IMG/VR virus record: IMGVR_UViG_3300037089_000535
Reading direction: 5' to 3' (one strand)
Length of the DNA: 16,776 nucleotides
Origin: a virus
Lineage: Duplodnaviria; Heunggongvirae; Uroviricota; Caudoviricetes
Position numbers and translations under genes: made by a program. Positions 3,880-15,527 of this stretch are shown here, piece by piece. The notes under the pieces were generated by a model, which searched no databases, was not told the origin of the DNA, and saw nothing but the letters and a program-made list of their open reading frames with translations. The first letter of the stretch is position 1, and every line of letters starts with the position of its first letter.

Positions 3880-4215
3880 ATGAAAGTACGAGAAAAGAAA
3901 AACCTGTTGAAGAAATATTCAGAGCTTAGAGAACAGATTATTAGAACGCTTGATAACTCTGATTACGAAATAGATGTTGATGGAGATGCCGTTGATCAAA
4001 TTCAAGGGCATAGCCTATTAAACATTCAAAATAGCTTATCTAAAAACAATCTGATGAAACTTAGAGCCATTGATGAGGCTATTGAGCTGATATCAAAGGG
4101 CGAGTACGGGGATTGCTCAGAGTGCGGAGAACCAATTGAAGTGAAACGCCTGGAAGCTATGCCAGGCGTCATTACCTGCGTGCTCTGCGCCGAGCAATTA
4201 GAATTACGTAGATAA
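3880..4215 (+). CDS. dksA: DksA/TraR-family C4 zinc-finger protein, 111 aa
   Basis: Coiled coil with a DxxD tip (DAVD), then GEYGDCSECGEPIEVKRLEAMP and CVLC. ATG 3880 follows GAAGGGA and is preferred over TTG 3820. Confidence 0.9.
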   Translation: MKVREKKNLLKKYSELREQIIRTLDNSDYEIDVDGDAVDQIQGHSLLNIQNSLSKNNLMKLRAIDEAIELISKGEYGDCSECGEPIEVKRLEAMPGVITCVLCAEQLELRR

Positions 4216-4295
4216 TTACAGTATTATTGTAATATGTACGGTATGTGACGTCTTAAACCTACAGGTCAATAACGCAGTATTTCGTTGAGGCTAAT

Positions 4296-4979
4296 ATGCG
4301 GAAAACCAATCTTAATCCAATTTTTTTCGAGAAGACTAAGGACGGTGAACGGATATACGATGTGTCATCTCGGTTGATGAAGGACCGAGTAATTTATTTA
4401 GATTGTGAAATAGACGAGGAAGTTACAAGTGAAATAACATCTCTGATATTCTTACTAGACAGAGAAAATAGCGATCAAAAAATTAAGTTGTGGATTAATT
4501 GTCCAGGAGGAATCGCTCAGGGCTTCTTTGCTATTTACGACATGATTCAAAGGGTCAAGGCTCCTGTAGAGACGGTTTGTATTGGGGAGGCCAGCTCAGC
4601 GGCGGCAATACTTCTGGCGTCAGGATCTCAGGGCATGCGTTATGCAATGCCAAATTCTAGAATCATGATTCATCAGATTCAGGTTGAAGGCTTGGCTGGT
4701 TCAAATGCAGAAATAGAAATAGGAACCAAAGAACTCAAAGAGGTTCAAGATCGCCTTACCGAAATATTAGCAAGACATACCGGGCACACAAAGGCAAAGA
4801 TCAAAAGGGATACAAAGATGGATAAATTCCTTTCAGCTAATGGTGCTCTTGAATATGGGTTGATAGATAAAATTCTACCTACAGCAAAAAAACAACCAGA
4901 ATTACTAAAGAGGGAAGTCAAGAAAGGTAATAGTACTGATAGTGTAGAAGATGCGGATGATGATGACGAAAATGAATGA
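4296..4979 (+). CDS. clpP: ClpP protease proteolytic subunit with acidic C-terminal tail
   Basis: GERIYDVSSRLMKDRVIYL, INCPGG, CIGEASSAAA (Ser), NSRIMIHQ (His) and MDKFLSA (Asp); the triad appears intact. Confidence 0.95.
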   Translation: MRKTNLNPIFFEKTKDGERIYDVSSRLMKDRVIYLDCEIDEEVTSEITSLIFLLDRENSDQKIKLWINCPGGIAQGFFAIYDMIQRVKAPVETVCIGEASSAAAILLASGSQGMRYAMPNSRIMIHQIQVEGLAGSNAEIEIGTKELKEVQDRLTEILARHTGHTKAKIKRDTKMDKFLSANGALEYGLIDKILPTAKKQPELLKREVKKGNSTDSVEDADDDDENE

Positions 4980-5274: not shown

Positions 5275-7161
5275 ATGATTGAAATCTATGCCAAAAGGCA
5301 GCGAGTCAAGAGGAAAAATCCTCAGCAAGAAGCTATTGTTAGCGAAAAGGATAAGCTCAACGAGAGAACGTCTAAGCTGATTGCTTTGATGAGGTCTATG
5401 AAGAGTGGGTGGAATGGCGGGCCATCTCCTGAAATTGGTGTTGAGAAATTCAATCTGACACAACCACTCCCAGATGTAGTTGTAGGAACAGGTGATGCGG
5501 CCCTGCACGAGCTGACAGATATCGTTCAAATACTTCGACAAGTTAAGACGATGCAGGATAACTATTCAGCAGCTCGTGCCCAAAGAGCTGAACAGTTGAA
5601 GCAAACCCAGCCAGCACCACAAGAGGCTCCGGCGCAATCGCCGCCACAACCATTGGCCACTGCGTCTGCAGTTGTTGATGAATTTCTGAAAACGGCAAGT
5701 AACCCGTTGACAAGAATATGGACGCACCTAATTGCGTACAATCCATTCGTAAGTGAAAAGGATCGTGGGCAGAGACTTTATCTATTGAGGGCACTAGCAA
5801 GAATAGATAATAACCTTAAGGTTGTCGAAGATCATGTTCTTAGCATGGGCGAAGCTTCATTGTTAGAATCTATATACATAGCGAAACAATTGTACAGTGA
5901 TGCTAAGTCTTCATTCTTTGGAGTCTTTCGAAAGAATATAGATGAAATGTTGGCGTCTGCTGATAATCAACTGGAAGATCTGAAAAAAGAACTGAAGAAT
6001 AAGTTGAATAAAAAACCAGAGAAAGGTCAACTTACAAATAATGTTGCTGTTATTCTTCGTGGTGTAGAGGATGCACAAGAGGCTATCAGTGGTGATTCTA
6101 TTACAAGCAATGATGGTTATTCGGCTCCAGAACCTAATGGTGAACAGCCTCCGTTGAAAACGGAGCCGGTTAGAATACCATCAGAAGAATTGCCAATACA
6201 GCCAGAAGGGCCTGTAAAGAGTAAAACACCATTGAGAAAGGTTCCTAGTAGGACTCGAAGAAAGAGAAGGGTCCCAATAGCTCAAGCCCCAGAGGTTCCA
6301 AATAGCGATTTTATCGATTCTGATTTTGAGCAATCGCAACAAGTTCGCTATCTAGAAATAGCCAAATATCTTTATGGAAATGTAGATGCTTTGGTTAAGC
6401 AAGCGCATGATGTTGTTCAGAGCAATTTGTCCGAACCATGGAACGCCAGGGTGAAGCTTGAGTATCGAAAGGTTTATAAGTTAGGAGAGTTAACTGTATC
6501 AAGGATTCGCAATGGTGAAGATTATGAATTTGATTATCTTGAATTCTTGAAGTCCGTTGGTGTAATTAAATCTATTGAATACATGGCATCTGTACAATCA
6601 CAAGATGATGTTACAACTACAATAGATGATGGTGATGTAAATTCTCAGGCTGATAATTTTGCAAAGTCAGAATTTTCAAAGTATCGAGATCTTGCGACAG
6701 CTAAGATTTCGCAGGCAAGTACATATGCTTCAAGATTTATAAAGCGCATGATTACACACATCATACCGAGACGTGATAGGAATCTTAGACTGTTGATTAG
6801 CCGTAATGTTCGTCAAGCGCGCAGTGGGCTTCAAGGCATGTTAGACACTCTTGAGGATAGGCATTTGAATTTCAGGCGTCTGTCAGCTAATAGCGAATTG
6901 TTTTATGATTCACTAATTAGTTGTTATGAGGCACTAGCTGATTTGGCAGATATGTATAACTCAAGTATGAGAATTGAGAAGTCTTATCGCAAACAAAAGC
7001 ATGACAGAATGCCATATGATCTAATTCCAACACTTGATATTAATGCTCTAAGAATGATGCAAAGATATTTGGAGGCTGACCGAATGAGTATTCAAAAGCT
7101 TCAGGAATTAGAAAATTCAATAACAGAAACCTCTAATGCATTAGAGGGAAATGATGGATGA
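5275..7161 (+). CDS. Large hypothetical helical protein (~628 aa) with Pro/Gln-rich linkers and a possible internal repeat
   Basis: Long ORF (start GTG 5269 or ATG 5275) with linkers QPAPQEAPAQSPPQP and PEPNGEQPP...PIAQAPEVP. Confidence 0.85.
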   Translation: MIEIYAKRQRVKRKNPQQEAIVSEKDKLNERTSKLIALMRSMKSGWNGGPSPEIGVEKFNLTQPLPDVVVGTGDAALHELTDIVQILRQVKTMQDNYSAARAQRAEQLKQTQPAPQEAPAQSPPQPLATASAVVDEFLKTASNPLTRIWTHLIAYNPFVSEKDRGQRLYLLRALARIDNNLKVVEDHVLSMGEASLLESIYIAKQLYSDAKSSFFGVFRKNIDEMLASADNQLEDLKKELKNKLNKKPEKGQLTNNVAVILRGVEDAQEAISGDSITSNDGYSAPEPNGEQPPLKTEPVRIPSEELPIQPEGPVKSKTPLRKVPSRTRRKRRVPIAQAPEVPNSDFIDSDFEQSQQVRYLEIAKYLYGNVDALVKQAHDVVQSNLSEPWNARVKLEYRKVYKLGELTVSRIRNGEDYEFDYLEFLKSVGVIKSIEYMASVQSQDDVTTTIDDGDVNSQADNFAKSEFSKYRDLATAKISQASTYASRFIKRMITHIIPRRDRNLRLLISRNVRQARSGLQGMLDTLEDRHLNFRRLSANSELFYDSLISCYEALADLADMYNSSMRIEKSYRKQKHDRMPYDLIPTLDINALRMMQRYLEADRMSIQKLQELENSITETSNALEGNDG

Positions 7162-10792: not shown

Positions 10793-11017
10793 ATGAGTTG
10801 GCAAGGTGAAAGAGGAACACCAGGATGTCCTGGTTTAGATAAATCAGATTATGAATTGATAGTTTTGGCTTTGGAAAAATATACCTCAGATCAGAGCGTC
10901 ATTGGCAGCTTATCTCGTGATGATTTAAAGAATTTATATATCACACAGCATCTTGTTAAGCAAACGCTCTTGTGGTATGATTTGAAAACAAAGCTTGATT
11001 TATTGCAAAGAAAGTAA
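10793..11017 (+). CDS. Small hypothetical protein, 74 aa
   Basis: GAGGTG SD before ATG 10793; fills the gap between the protease and kinase genes. Confidence 0.7.
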   Translation: MSWQGERGTPGCPGLDKSDYELIVLALEKYTSDQSVIGSLSRDDLKNLYITQHLVKQTLLWYDLKTKLDLLQRK

Positions 11018-11019
11018 TT

Positions 11020-11751
11020 ATGAAAGTAATTATTATGATGGGCCTTCCCGGCTCGGGGAAGTCAACGTGGGCGAAGTCAGTCCAAGGTAGAAAAGTTATC
11101 GTATCATCTGATAACTACTTTACCGATCCTGATGGTAATTATAACTGGACAATTGAAGAGGCTCACAAAGGCCACGAAGATTGTTTGCGTAGATTTATAC
11201 ATGAATTTCAATCTGGGCCGCCAAGTGGAGATCCACCCAAACCGCCTGAAGTAATAATTGTAGATAATACAAATGTTAGAATTCATGACATTTCACCATA
11301 CATAAGAATAGCTCAGGCGTATGGTTGTGATGTTGAAGTGAAGTACATGGATACTAATGTTGATAACTCAAAGACTAGGAATATCCATGGAGTTCCAGAT
11401 GTTGCCTATGATAGGATGCAGAAGAATTTTGCATTCTTGCTTGAGACATGGCCCAAAGATTTCCCGCCGATTGAGTTTGTGACTGATACAGGATGGGGCT
11501 CAATAGCTCCTGCATATGGATGTCTATGGCCAGAAGAACAAACTGAATTCGATGTGATTCTTGTTGAGGCTGGACCAAGCAAGATTCGTATAGTGAAATG
11601 GTTTAGGGAAAATACAAAAATTACATTGAAGGGCGCTATAGAATTGGCAGAGAATAGCCCAAAGAAGATCTTGTCAGAAGTTTCTGAGTATGAAGCTAAT
11701 AAAGCAAAACAACAACTTGAAGCTCTTGGTGCCAAGATAGAAATTAGGTAA
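11020..11751 (+). CDS. AAA_33/N4BP2-like P-loop (polynucleotide) kinase fused to a ribosomal protein bL12 (L7/L12) C-terminal domain
   Basis: Kinase motifs GLPGSGKST, SSDNYF, IIVDNTN and RNIHGVP. Residues 172-243 (EEQTEFDVIL...KIRIVKWFR...LKGAIELAE...EALGAKIEIR) align without gaps to the remembered E. coli bL12 CTD (EEKTEFDVIL...KVAVIKAVR...LKEAKDLVE...EEAGAEVEVK). Confidence 0.9.
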   Translation: MKVIIMMGLPGSGKSTWAKSVQGRKVIVSSDNYFTDPDGNYNWTIEEAHKGHEDCLRRFIHEFQSGPPSGDPPKPPEVIIVDNTNVRIHDISPYIRIAQAYGCDVEVKYMDTNVDNSKTRNIHGVPDVAYDRMQKNFAFLLETWPKDFPPIEFVTDTGWGSIAPAYGCLWPEEQTEFDVILVEAGPSKIRIVKWFRENTKITLKGAIELAENSPKKILSEVSEYEANKAKQQLEALGAKIEIR

Positions 11752-11755
11752 TCAG

Positions 11756-12325
11756 ATGAAACTAAGTGATCTAAACATACTTGATTTTGGCAATTCAATC
11801 CAAATGTCAGGTGCCGTGTTTTCAGATGAAAACAAATCATATCTATGTATGTTTCCTGGAGAAACATTAAATGATATGAACACCATAATTATGGATAGTG
11901 AAGATTGGAAGTCTCTAATTCATCAAACAGATTTGTTGGAAACAGAGATTTTGGCCAAAGCTCCTGATGGTAGTTTGGTAAAGATTATCTATCGAAAGAG
12001 CCAGCGCAACATTGACCAAGTTATTTCCTGGAAGGTTTTCAGGAGAGACAGCTATAAGTGTAGATACTGTGGTGCTGACAATGTACCACTTACAGTTGAT
12101 CATCTTGTTTGTTGGGAAGATGGCGGCCCTAGCATTGAATCAAACTTATTAACATCGTGCAAAAAGTGCAATAAAATTCGTGGTAACAAATCGTACGCTG
12201 AGTGGTTGAGACATCCAAGATATCTAGAAACTAAGAAGAAACTATCATTGGAAATTCAGCGAGAGAATGAAGCCATCCTTGCTACACTTGATTCAATTCC
12301 AAGGCAGCACGTAAGGTCTAGGTAA
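11756..12325 (+). CDS. HNH endonuclease with ~85-aa N-terminal extension
   Basis: VFRRDSYKCRYCG...LTVDHL...GG...NLLTSCKKCNKIRGNK is a Zn-binding HNH motif. Confidence 0.92.
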   Translation: MKLSDLNILDFGNSIQMSGAVFSDENKSYLCMFPGETLNDMNTIIMDSEDWKSLIHQTDLLETEILAKAPDGSLVKIIYRKSQRNIDQVISWKVFRRDSYKCRYCGADNVPLTVDHLVCWEDGGPSIESNLLTSCKKCNKIRGNKSYAEWLRHPRYLETKKKLSLEIQRENEAILATLDSIPRQHVRSR

Positions 12326-12375
12326 TAATTACGGGTATGGCCCAACAGCCCCACAATCAAAAGTGGAGAATTTTG

Positions 12376-12403
12376 TTGCAAGCCATTCGCTTCGCCATAT
12401 AAT
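12376..12403 (+). promoter_or_regulatory. Sigma70-type promoter TTGCAA-N16-TATAAT upstream of the sigma gene
   Basis: Perfect -10 at 12398-12403 and -35 at 12376-12381, in an intergenic region. Confidence 0.65.
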
Positions 12404-12475
12404 AACATCACAACGCTTACGACAGGTTGAGGGGGACTTGTCTGCGTTTCAAAAGCGCTGAGAGTGAGTATTACG

Positions 12476-13015
12476 ATGAACGTTTATGAAAGATTCAAGA
12501 ACAACGAATATTTATTAAACCCAATTGTAAAAGGATTGCATAGGCGATTTAGCCGGTTTTTTCAGCTAAAAGAATTATATCAATGGGGCTCGATTGGTCT
12601 ATTTGATGCCAGCAAGAAATTTTCTGGCAATGAAGAAGAGTTTCATTTTTATGCAAATGTTCGTATCCGTGGAAGTATTATTGATGAGATACGAAAAGAG
12701 TCATTGTTTGTTAGGCGCGCAGGTGTAGATGAACAGCCAAAGTTCACGTACTGCGAAGAACCAGAATATGATCACGCATATTCCGATACTTCATTCGAAA
12801 ATAAGTTAATTGCAAGAGAAAAACTATCACAAATAATCAATGGCCTTGATCGTCTAACCCCACGACTACGAAATGTTTTTATATGGACATTCTTTGAAAA
12901 AATAGAACAGGCAGATATTGCACTGGTTATTGGGTTATCTGAGCCGCGCGTTTCCCAACTGAAGAAGAAGGCCATAAAAGCGCTCGCCAAGATGGGCGTC
13001 GAGATGGCAGCTTAG
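12476..13015 (+). CDS. Compact FliA/WhiG-like (sigma-28 family) RNA polymerase sigma factor, ~179 aa (start ATG 12476 or GTG 12464)
   Basis: Region 2: ELYQWGSIGLFDASKKF...FHFYANVRIRGSIIDEIRK. Region 4: LTPRLRNVF...DIALVIGLSEPRVSQLKKKAIKAL. Confidence 0.88.
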   Translation: MNVYERFKNNEYLLNPIVKGLHRRFSRFFQLKELYQWGSIGLFDASKKFSGNEEEFHFYANVRIRGSIIDEIRKESLFVRRAGVDEQPKFTYCEEPEYDHAYSDTSFENKLIAREKLSQIINGLDRLTPRLRNVFIWTFFEKIEQADIALVIGLSEPRVSQLKKKAIKALAKMGVEMAA

Positions 13016-14747: not shown

Positions 14748-15527
14748 ATGTCGTTTTGGAGGCCCTCAAATAATTGCCTGTACGTAATTTCCGATATTAA
14801 CGGACTTCATAGTGAGCTTGAATTAATACTTAGTCGTATTCTGCCTCTTAGAAAAACAGGCGGCCAAAAAGATACATTGATATTTCTTGGTAACTATATG
14901 GGAAGTACTAGGTCTCATGAGACATTAGACATTATGCTTAAGGTACATAATGATAACAAAGGCCAGGTAATTTGCCTTTGTGGCGATAATGACCTTAGTC
15001 TCTTGAACTCTATTGACTATTTCGGTCCATCAAAACCAGAAGAATACAAGTCTTGGCTTTCATCAGGTGGAGATAATTCATTAATAGGATATCTGAAAAG
15101 AATAAAATCAGATCATAGCAATCCATACCTGATACAGAGACAATATCTAAATAGATTTATTCCAAAGGAACACTTAGATTTTATTAGTTCGTTATTAATA
15201 TATTATGAAACTGAAGATTATATATTCGTACATGGAGGATGTGATCCAAATATACCACTGTACAAACATACTAATGAAGTACTGGTTAGAGATAGAAGTG
15301 TATTCAATTTAGTAAATAATTATGGTAGTAAGTTTAAATGTCCATGGAAAAAGACAATAATAACTGGTGGCGTTGGTAAATTAGATGGAAAACCATTGGT
15401 CAGTGATAAATTTATCACATTGGATGGAAGTTATGCCGAGAGATTGTACGTGCTTGAGCTTAATTCAAGGGAAATATTCTCGGCTCGTAAAGGAAAAGCT
15501 AGGTTAGTAAAAGAATCAATAACTTAG
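14748..15527 (+). CDS. Calcineurin-like metallophosphoesterase-fold protein with degenerate active site (probable pseudo-phosphatase)
   Basis: Layout matches Ser/Thr phosphatase (PrpA/lambda-PP) motifs, but they read SDING, GNYMG, GDND, FVHGG and TGGVG instead of GDIHG, GDYIDRG, GNHE, HAG and GHTP. Confidence 0.8.
   Translation: MSFWRPSNNCLYVISDINGLHSELELILSRILPLRKTGGQKDTLIFLGNYMGSTRSHETLDIMLKVHNDNKGQVICLCGDNDLSLLNSIDYFGPSKPEEYKSWLSSGGDNSLIGYLKRIKSDHSNPYLIQRQYLNRFIPKEHLDFISSLLIYYETEDYIFVHGGCDPNIPLYKHTNEVLVRDRSVFNLVNNYGSKFKCPWKKTIITGGVGKLDGKPLVSDKFITLDGSYAERLYVLELNSREIFSARKGKARLVKESIT

Follow-up and report, generated by a model that had tools for sequence, protein, structure and literature searches.

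The ribosomal stalk protein bL12 has a C-terminal domain (CTD) that is the docking site of the translational GTPases EF-Tu, EF-G, IF2 and RF3, and its N-terminal domain anchors bL12 to uL10. In phages, bL12 domains have been known since 2019, with no function assigned to them, and they lie inside larger proteins such as AGF88397 of Salmonella phage FSL SP-076 and AHI60108 of Erwinia phage Ea9-2 (Mizuno 2019; PMC6375957). Here we describe a gene in a 16,776-nucleotide stretch of Caudoviricetes DNA (IMG/VR record IMGVR_UViG_3300037089_000535; the whole stretch is called the window below) whose predicted product, P0001, joins a P-loop kinase of the N4BP2/polynucleotide kinase (PNK) type to a bL12 CTD. 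P0001 has in common with the published proteins an embedded bL12 domain, retained elongation-factor contact residues, homologues without the domain and a sporadic pattern of acquisition. The published proteins, however, have flanks of no assigned function and come mostly from podoviruses below 80 kb, whereas P0001 combines the domain with an N4BP2/PNK-type kinase in a jumbo-phage lineage whose relatives carry RlaP; a kinase fusion is not mentioned in that paper (PMC6375957). Tentatively, we propose that P0001 could be a kinase of RNA 5'-OH ends which is brought to the ribosome or to translational GTPases and serves there in RNA end-healing, a reading suggested by sequence and structural models to which we give a little less than an even chance.

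The best structural matches to the kinase half are N4BP2, N4BP2L1, N4BP2L2 and YLPM1, and the N4BP2 kinase is part of a ribosome-associated RNA-cleavage pathway (PMC6598757). All four are eukaryotic, however, and are only about 20-27% identical to the P0001 kinase, and N4BP2 reaches ribosomes through CUE and Smr domains rather than a bL12 domain. T4 Pnkp and Clostridium thermocellum Pnkp have the same kinase fold and take part in RNA repair alongside end-modifying and sealing enzymes; unlike them, P0001 has no fused phosphatase or ligase-like domain and bears a ribosomal-protein domain instead. PSTK provides the top solved-structure match for the kinase core, and P0001 is without the C-terminal tRNA-binding domain of PSTK and Kti12. 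Cellular bL12 (L7/L12) has a CTD homologous to that of P0001 (39-45% identity; root-mean-square deviation, rmsd, about 1 Å), whereas P0001 lacks the dimerisation/uL10-binding domain and the rplJ-rplL context, scores below the TIGR00855 cut-off and shows W71 along with other family-specific changes. As in the RlaP modules described for jumbo phages and bacteria (Iyer et al. 2021, PMC7824862; Carruthers et al. 2025 preprint), kinase and RlaP are adjacent and co-directional in five related lineages, in a jumbo-phage background, and the fragment carrying such a pair in the relative G001 also carries RtcB. The P0001 locus differs from those modules in having no adjacent ligase and no RlaP in the window, and the described modules are without a ribosomal-protein domain. 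The published phages with bS21 (PMC9723584) show a different bS21 context and no bL12.

One reading frame for a P-loop kinase and a bL12 C-terminal domain

A preliminary description, made from the sequence letters, had placed a kinase and a bL12 CTD in one uninterrupted open reading frame (ORF). The ORF call gives a single unbroken ATG-to-TAA frame of 243 aa, and the Pfam scan returned the two families which that description had expected, AAA_33 at residues 3-121 (48.1 bits vs a cut-off of 27, E 2e-12) and the Ribosomal_L12 CTD, PF00542, at residues 177-242 (profile positions 1-66/67, 61.7 bits vs 25.9, E 8.6e-17). All motifs quoted in it are present, namely GLPGSGKST (8-16), DNTN (82-85), RNIHGVP (120-126) and EEQTEFDVIL (172-181). 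The same scan found in P0001 neither PF16320, the bL12 N-terminal domain, nor a fused 3'-phosphatase (HAD or metallophosphoesterase) or ligase domain. From residue 159 on, model confidence is low (pLDDT below 50), and the linker, a flexible one, varies in length between orthologues. The full-length AF2 model gives the CTD at low confidence, since the alignment is thin there, and is silent on inter-domain contacts.

The fusion is found well beyond a single assembly. The identical protein occurs on 5 contigs of separate assemblies, the whole gene is present in 6 peat-metagenome runs from 4 studies, and five other 90%-identity clusters (P0002, P0003, P0004, P0006 and P0007; 57-71% identical; one on an IMG/VR contig) carry both domains. 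At the junction near 11500-11540, where the preliminary description had allowed for an assembly artefact, an 880-nt contig (10868-11747) runs across with 0 differences in each of 3 runs (3 studies). Since the junction is spanned in these runs and diverged orthologues share the architecture, a chimera or misassembly is excluded. Hence, sequence evidence indicates that the gene encodes a real two-domain phage enzyme. The gene is not fixed in the population: in runs X1, X2 and X3 a 63-nt contig joins 10897 to 11718 through TTA, revealing a second haplotype minus 820 bp, in which the end of ORF 10793-11017 and all of the fusion gene except its last 34 nt are gone. Because these 34 nt remain, we regard the second haplotype as a deletion derivative. 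The depth of the deletion joint was 9, 8.3 and 15.8 in X1, X2 and X3, vs 12.9, 12.2 and 45.2 for the gene-bearing path; by contig depth, the gene is thus absent from about 26-41% of the sampled population and is therefore accessory.

The kinase half is modelled with high confidence (AF2 pLDDT above 90). Its PHROGs matches are phrog_2071 ("ATPase", E 2e-23) and phrog_505 ("polynucleotide kinase", E 2e-11). In Foldseek searches the best Swiss-Prot models were YLPM1, N4BP2L1, N4BP2 and N4BP2L2 (E 1e-11 to 4e-10), followed by PSTK and Kti12, which backs the N4BP2/PNK-type class named in the preliminary description; the nearest solved structures were PSTK-tRNA(Sec), at the top, T4 polynucleotide kinase and the C. 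thermocellum Pnkp kinase, with T4 Pnk and CthPnkp at E 6e-8 to 1e-7 and a Foldseek probability of 1.0, as for PSTK and the N4BP2 family. Among the profiles, TIGR04075 (Pnkp) gave 16.6 bits vs a cut-off of 750, Pfam KTI12 matches were weak, and TIGR03574 was far below cut-off. In a 66-sequence alignment G11, G13, K14, D31, D82-N85, R120, H123 and P126 are at least 90% conserved; D31, D82 and R120 are the putative general-base Asp, Walker-B-like Asp and lid Arg, with putative equivalents of T4 Pnk D35 and R126 among them. Motifs of the types SxDxYF, DNTN and RNxHGV are common to eukaryotic N4BP2-family kinases and P0001. Judged from sequence and models, the nucleotide-binding and catalytic-type motifs all appear intact, and the domain is a plausible catalyst of the nucleic-acid/tRNA-directed P-loop kinase clade (polynucleotide kinase, N4BP2, PSTK-Kti12), predicted to be of the N4BP2 type.

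These same matches raise the question of whether the substrate is an RNA 5' end. Given that PSTK bound to tRNA(Sec) is the top solved structure, that Kti12 and PSTK models rank high and that weak Pfam KTI12 matches exist, the CTD might instead bring the enzyme to EF-Tu or another GTPase to phosphorylate aminoacyl-tRNA, protein or a nucleotide. A parallel for a kinase aimed at translation factors is P0145, a Hanks protein kinase, non-homologous to the AAA_33 kinase, which is fused to three bL12 CTDs. We consider this very unlikely, since family matches by sequence are to polynucleotide kinase (phrog_505; TIGR04075 weakly, far below cut-off), N4BP2-type kinases stand ahead of PSTK by structure, and the PSTK/Kti12 C-terminal tRNA-binding domain is absent, the kinase part having only about 156 aa. 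Moreover, members of this P-loop kinase clade are not known to be protein kinases.

For the C-terminal module, the bL12 assignment rests on profiles, solved structures and a residue map. The equivalog profile TIGR00855 is matched at positions 53-125 only (61.6 bits, below its cut-off of 84.4), and in phmmer searches residues 154/162-243 align to bL12 of D. radiodurans, T. thermophilus, M. tuberculosis and E. coli from the Protein Data Bank (PDB; E 1e-11 to 1e-9), the alignments starting at the hinge end. When folded alone with a 27-sequence alignment, the CTD reached pLDDT 86 with the beta-alpha-alpha-beta-alpha-beta order of bL12 and superposed on the solved CTDs 8yeq and 1ctf at TM 0.8-0.94, the rmsd and identity being those given above for cellular bL12. 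A ClpS-like fold was also considered and is ruled out, the ClpS match being orders of magnitude weaker; a better fit of the module to another fold, which the preliminary description had named as a possible objection, is thereby excluded. Aligned to rplL of E. coli K-12 (NC_000913.3), P0001 keeps K65, K70, R73 and K81 and shows V66 to I, I69 to V and K84 to I, precisely as had been stated in that description; further changes are A71W (the W being invariant in the family), E82G, G77K and G79T. Across the family, K/R65 is found in 6/7 sequences, K/R70 in 7/7, R73 in 6/7, L80 in 7/7 and K/R84 in 6/7. The helix 4-5 face of bL12 is reportedly implicated in the binding of IF2, EF-Tu, EF-G and RF3. 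A homologue search with the CTD alone returned only 4 cellular bL12 proteins (41-44% identity, one labelled Spirochaetia), which bear PF16320 together with PF00542. Since P0001 is without this uL10-anchoring N-terminal domain, the fusion protein cannot be a stalk subunit, as the preliminary description had maintained. A single docking run of the CTD (165-243) on E. coli EF-G 1-300 (score 0.03, mark 0.34) is evidence neither way.

Two further features stand out in the family: an A-Y-G-C-L linker motif directly before the CTD (11503-11520, residues 162-167), and Trp W186 at the position of bL12 A71. Both are kept in most fusion copies and in the split copy of L009, and possibly they form a new contact surface.

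The architecture is rare. HMMER, run exhaustively over a set of 1.84 billion 50%-identity representatives, returned P0001 as the sole one with both domains. No other AAA_33+CTD cluster appeared among the best 150 matches, and the multi-stretch matches submitted to Pfam were CTD arrays or other fusions (P0196, whose two matched stretches both lie in the kinase part, was outside that scan). The fusion clusters all lack a source in NCBI or UniRef, 0/491 matching records from cultured phages cover at least 80% of the fusion protein, and no description of a kinase-bL12 CTD fusion was found in the published literature. The preliminary description knew of no such fusion and mentioned that phage-encoded bL12 domains had been reported; earlier publication of phage proteins with such a domain embedded in them (Mizuno 2019; PMC6375957) tempers the novelty. 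The bL12 CTD was also seen as tandem arrays of 3-7 copies and in fusions to TIR_2, a Hanks Ser/Thr kinase, a dynamin-like GTPase, LRV/HEAT repeats and EF-Tu domains 2+3.

Selection, split copies and a distant counterpart

In the main group, the ratio of non-synonymous to synonymous substitutions (dN/dS, Nei-Gojobori) lay at 0.09-0.16 over the kinase and at 0.19-0.49 over the CTD, and against the divergent L010 copy the CTD gave 0.5-0.9; these figures are rough, since dS is high (0.5-1.4) and the CTD has only 68 codons. None of the six fusion clusters shows a frameshift or internal stop. Hence, the fusion appears to be conserved under purifying selection in one large-phage lineage, and these ratios speak for a CTD that is kept under constraint, albeit a looser one than acts on the kinase. 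In L009 (1038-1817) a single in-frame TAA parts the kinase (163 aa) from the linker and CTD, and an 84-aa CTD ORF is called downstream of this stop; the stand-alone CTD has a dN/dS of 0.21 vs L015 and so seems to be constrained still. L009 is a single 1.9-kb contig, and the TAA may be a sequencing error or be read through. Its sequence indicates that the kinase and CTD modules stay linked even when split. The kinase-domain tree is poorly resolved and places the CTD-bearing genes in two or three sub-groups; one gain with later losses is therefore possible.

A distant lineage, L016, offers what is possibly an independent kinase-bL12 association and a minimal stalk-mimic motif, as far as can be read from sequence. 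Its kinase P0038 (5001-5483; identity to P0001 about 42% across roughly half the query), found on 21 contigs, is flanked by two paralogous coiled-coil ORFs (4081-4611 and 5755-6441), each with a terminal hairpin resembling bL12 helices 4-5. Against PF00542 one hairpin scores above cut-off (E 1.3e-7) and one below (E 1.6e-3), in both cases over the helix 4-5 part only, and both keep the K65/I69/K70/R73/L80/K81/A83/K84 pattern (K-x3-I-K-x2-R ... L-K-[DE]-A-K). No bL12-like hairpin neighbours were seen beside the other kinase homologues examined.

These observations bear on two accounts in which the enzyme is not brought to its work by the CTD. According to the first, the free CTD would compete with the stalk, titrating translational GTPases or soaking up defence nucleases that are captured by the stalk, and the kinase would work on its own or simply serve as a stable carrier. 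Absence of the uL10-anchoring domain, a mostly kept factor-binding face, the ability of the CTD to stand alone as the 84-aa ORF of L009 and the existence of CTD arrays without any enzyme are all compatible with such a decoy. Cami1-type CARF-RelE enzymes are captured via the stalk CTD. The solved structure 8phj, going by its title, has Cami1, a CRISPR-associated nuclease, together with bL12 on the 70S ribosome. However, of the two halves the kinase is better conserved (dN/dS about 0.1) and its catalytic motifs are intact, which argues that it is not a passive carrier; a pure decoy would have no need of fusion or adjacency with the same kinase family in two distant lineages, and a single low-affinity CTD per molecule would be a weak competitor against the four to six stalk copies per ribosome. 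Hence, we regard a decoy as unlikely.

The second account is near-neutral accretion, in which the CTD was captured by chance beside a repair kinase and then fused to it, contributes little, and belongs to a gene decaying in the lineage. Many independent, sporadic acquisitions of phage bL12 domains are on record (Mizuno 2019; PMC6375957), the CTD is lost in some close relatives and evolves faster than the kinase, L009 has its in-frame stop, and the window has lost RlaP and, in 26-41% of the population, the whole gene. Set against these points, the dN/dS of the CTD is well below 1 at the dS values given in at least 4 lineages, the six fusion clusters are free of frameshifts and internal stops, the fold and most factor-face residues are kept, and a distant lineage independently sets bL12-like hairpins beside the same kinase. 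Of the accounts weighed here we hold accretion to be the least probable.

The RlaP slot and the proposed reading as an addressed kinase

The window is phage DNA with genes for a ClpP-type protease, DksA-like and HU-like proteins, a SpoU methylase, NADAR, a Dda-like helicase, HSP20, a sigma-like factor and a topoisomerase, the last of which has a best tblastn match of 43% identity among cultured phages. The IMG/VR relative G001 is a 78-kb fragment estimated by CheckV as 18% complete, which points to a jumbo phage. The syntenic slot has a fixed order, with a papain-like ORF, one or more small ORFs, the kinase(-CTD) and RlaP, after which come, in the opposite orientation, HSP20 and the helicase. 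In five lineages (L004/5/7, L006, L009, L010 and the contig of P0003) RlaP (PF10127) begins a few bases past the kinase(-CTD) stop. RlaP, which takes its name from a link to RNA ligases, extends damaged RNA 3' ends by one or two nucleotides (bioRxiv 10.64898/2025.12.29.696909), and it is a recognised member of the jumbo-phage RNA-repair kit alongside polynucleotide kinases (PMC7824862). The cultured Vibrio phage 11895-B1 (L013, 3983-8099) has an RNA-repair-type cluster in which the kinase homologue lies directly upstream of a tRNA nucleotidyltransferase, itself split by an HNH gene; a hydrolase comes next, and then a weak RlaP-like ORF. The adjoining RlaP in five lineages, together with the tRNA nucleotidyltransferase that the Vibrio phage kinase precedes, strengthens the idea of RNA end-healing.

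Under the proposed reading, the CTD would be an address module that docks on whichever G domains the stalk CTD is normally recognised by, those of EF-Tu, EF-G, IF2 and RF3, at the ribosomal factor-binding site or close to it. Docking would gather the kinase at 5'-OH RNA ends left by host nucleases that are associated with the ribosome or directed at anticodons; the enzyme would turn these into 5'-phosphate ends, RlaP would restore lost 3' nucleotides, and a ligase encoded elsewhere would seal the break, or the 5'-phosphate would mark the fragment for decay. The overall role may be accessory counter-defence or translation maintenance, and non-essential. Such a role is consistent with the assignment of the N4BP2 PNK domain to a ribosome-collision nuclease family (PMC6598757) and with the EF-binding residues retained by phage bL12 domains (PMC6375957), and the Hanks kinase of P0145 is a further precedent for a kinase joined to bL12 CTDs. 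The more general proposition, that phage bL12 mimicry, by a CTD or by a helix 4-5 hairpin, delivers a 5'-kinase to translational GTPases or the ribosomal factor-binding site so that RNA cut there by host defence nucleases heals on the spot, is in our view doubtful; we place it below the reading for P0001 itself and above the competing accounts.

The preliminary description had suggested an address label for an end-healing kinase, and of this suggestion the domains, the missing N-terminal domain and the kinase class have stood. The RlaP context of relatives, which lay outside the letters behind that description, adds independent support; RlaP itself is missing in the window (tblastn), where an HNH gene and a sigma-like gene occupy its position. 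Several further observations weigh against the reading. The CTD changes at 2-3 times the rate of the kinase, and a kinase-only orthologue without a CTD (P0013, L006) occupies the same slot. The factor-binding face is not uniformly preserved, for the P0007 copy is without K65 and R73, and P0001 itself has G82 and I84 where the family keeps E82 and K84. The deletion haplotype leaves part of the population without the gene, and the only RNA-library fragment on it is 93 nt long and lies within the kinase part; in 3 peat metatranscriptomes two tiny contigs fall on the whole window, one of them being this piece. The sole ligase found in the 78-kb G001 is RtcB (E 5e-120), about 30 kb away, and RtcB, which joins 5'-OH ends, has no need of a 5'-kinase. 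No ATP-dependent RNA ligase was found in G001, with PF09414 negative in a fragment of about 18% of the genome; PF09511 gave no match there, and its control sequences gave none either.

In an outcome other than repair, the tethered kinase would phosphorylate 5'-OH mRNA or rRNA fragments cut on the ribosome and so commit them to degradation by host RNases that depend on a 5'-monophosphate (RNase E, G or J). The N4BP2 family is closest to the kinase, and the N4BP2 PNK domain has been proposed to feed Xrn1 after ribosome-associated cleavage in no-go decay (PMC6598757). T4 Pnk provides a precedent on RegB-cut mRNAs, and T4 PNK stimulates host endoribonucleases and mRNA decay, according to the account of Durand 2012 given in PMC9409239. 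Decay would be favoured by RtcB being the sole ligase found, which makes no use of 5'-phosphate ends, and the window lineage retains the kinase-CTD gene without RlaP. The repair outcome, in contrast, is favoured by the RlaP that adjoins the gene in relatives: tight coupling to a repair-type 3'-end nucleotidyltransferase recurs in five lineages, and no phage endoribonuclease partner was identified in the gene neighbourhood. We therefore judge that the decay account is improbable, ranking it just after a decoy and before a different substrate.

The remaining neighbours of the fusion gene are listed with its own features in Table 1. The HNH endonuclease and sigma-70-like ORFs (11756-13015) replace RlaP in the window lineage only. 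By tblastn, the HNH gene and the 74-aa upstream ORF were each found only in the window and L001-L003 among the compared loci; hence, the HNH gene is more likely a mobile endonuclease than a functional partner, probably of the homing type, and a conserved "cut-and-heal" pairing of the kinase with it is ruled out. On the contig of P0010, the kinase retains part of the linker and is followed by an HNH ORF as long as that of the window and then by an 83-aa ORF, possibly a CTD. A conserved 259-aa ORF (14748-15527, plus strand) shows weak likeness to NinI/ApaH-like metallophosphoesterases (phrog_246 E 1e-11, NF001204 E 4e-5) and has counterparts in L004 (13599-14372), L006 (13207-13977) and L010 (13642-14409), about 3 kb from the kinase in all relatives; going by these matches, it could be a phosphoesterase of an end-healing set. 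The NADAR ORF (1251-2117) overlaps the start of the SpoU-type RNA methyltransferase ORF (2032-2793), and at this place relatives have a radical-SAM ORF and a SpoU ORF; for all of these, anti-defence or RNA modification is possible. About 8 kb downstream of the fusion, relatives encode bS21 (L004 18814-19140, L006 18102-18434, L010 18259-18588), each bS21 gene being followed by an ORF with a PheRS N-terminal-like domain. Together with the bL12 CTD fusion, the lineage thus has at least two ribosomal-protein-derived genes.

Table 1. Coordinates of the fusion gene, its parts and adjoining features in the window, with other bL12 CTD proteins
Feature	Position	Strand	Basis
Kinase-bL12 CTD fusion gene (P0001)	11020..11751, stop codon included	+	ORF call, Pfam
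N4BP2/PNK-type P-loop kinase domain (predicted), residues 1-156	11020..11487	+	AAA_33, PHROGs, AF2, Foldseek
Walker A, G8-T16	11041-11067	+	motif
Conserved Asp31	11110-11112	+	alignment
DNTN, residues 82-85	11263-11274	+	motif
RNIHGVP, residues 120-126	11377-11397	+	motif
Inter-domain linker, residues 157-171	11488..11532	+	low model confidence
bL12 C-terminal domain, residues 172-243, hinge end to C-terminus	11533..11748	+	PF00542, TIGR00855, PDB bL12 sequences
Upstream 74-aa ORF, no assigned function, ends 2 nt before fusion gene	10793..11017	+	gene calls
HNH endonuclease gene, 4 nt downstream of fusion gene	11756..12325	+	PF01844 E 8e-10, many HNH PHROGs
820-bp segment missing in co-existing haplotype, TTA in place	10898..11717	.	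63-nt joining contig
bL12 CTD arrays/fusions: P0125, P0126, P0144, P0145, P0146, P0149, P0158, P0178, P0181, P0195, P0206, P0211, P0223, P0224			

Implications for viral bL12 domains

P0001 is the first case we could find in which a phage bL12 domain sits on an enzyme with a predictable, assayable activity and a repair context (RlaP), and the fusion thus makes the function of viral bL12 domains approachable by experiment. If the CTD indeed acts as an address, phage RNA repair would be spatially targeted to the translation apparatus, and P0001 would be the first enzyme of RNA repair to owe its address to a ribosomal-protein domain, and would supply the first functional explanation of phage bL12 domains. 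It would also represent a natural, compact tag (about 70 aa) for delivering enzymes to translational GTPases. The fusions of bL12 CTDs to TIR, Hanks kinase, dynamin-like GTPase and EF-Tu domains 2-3 hint that the same address may be used on both sides of the phage-host conflict. Should the address model fail, P0001 would still show clearly how a domain of a ribosomal protein is reused as a module.

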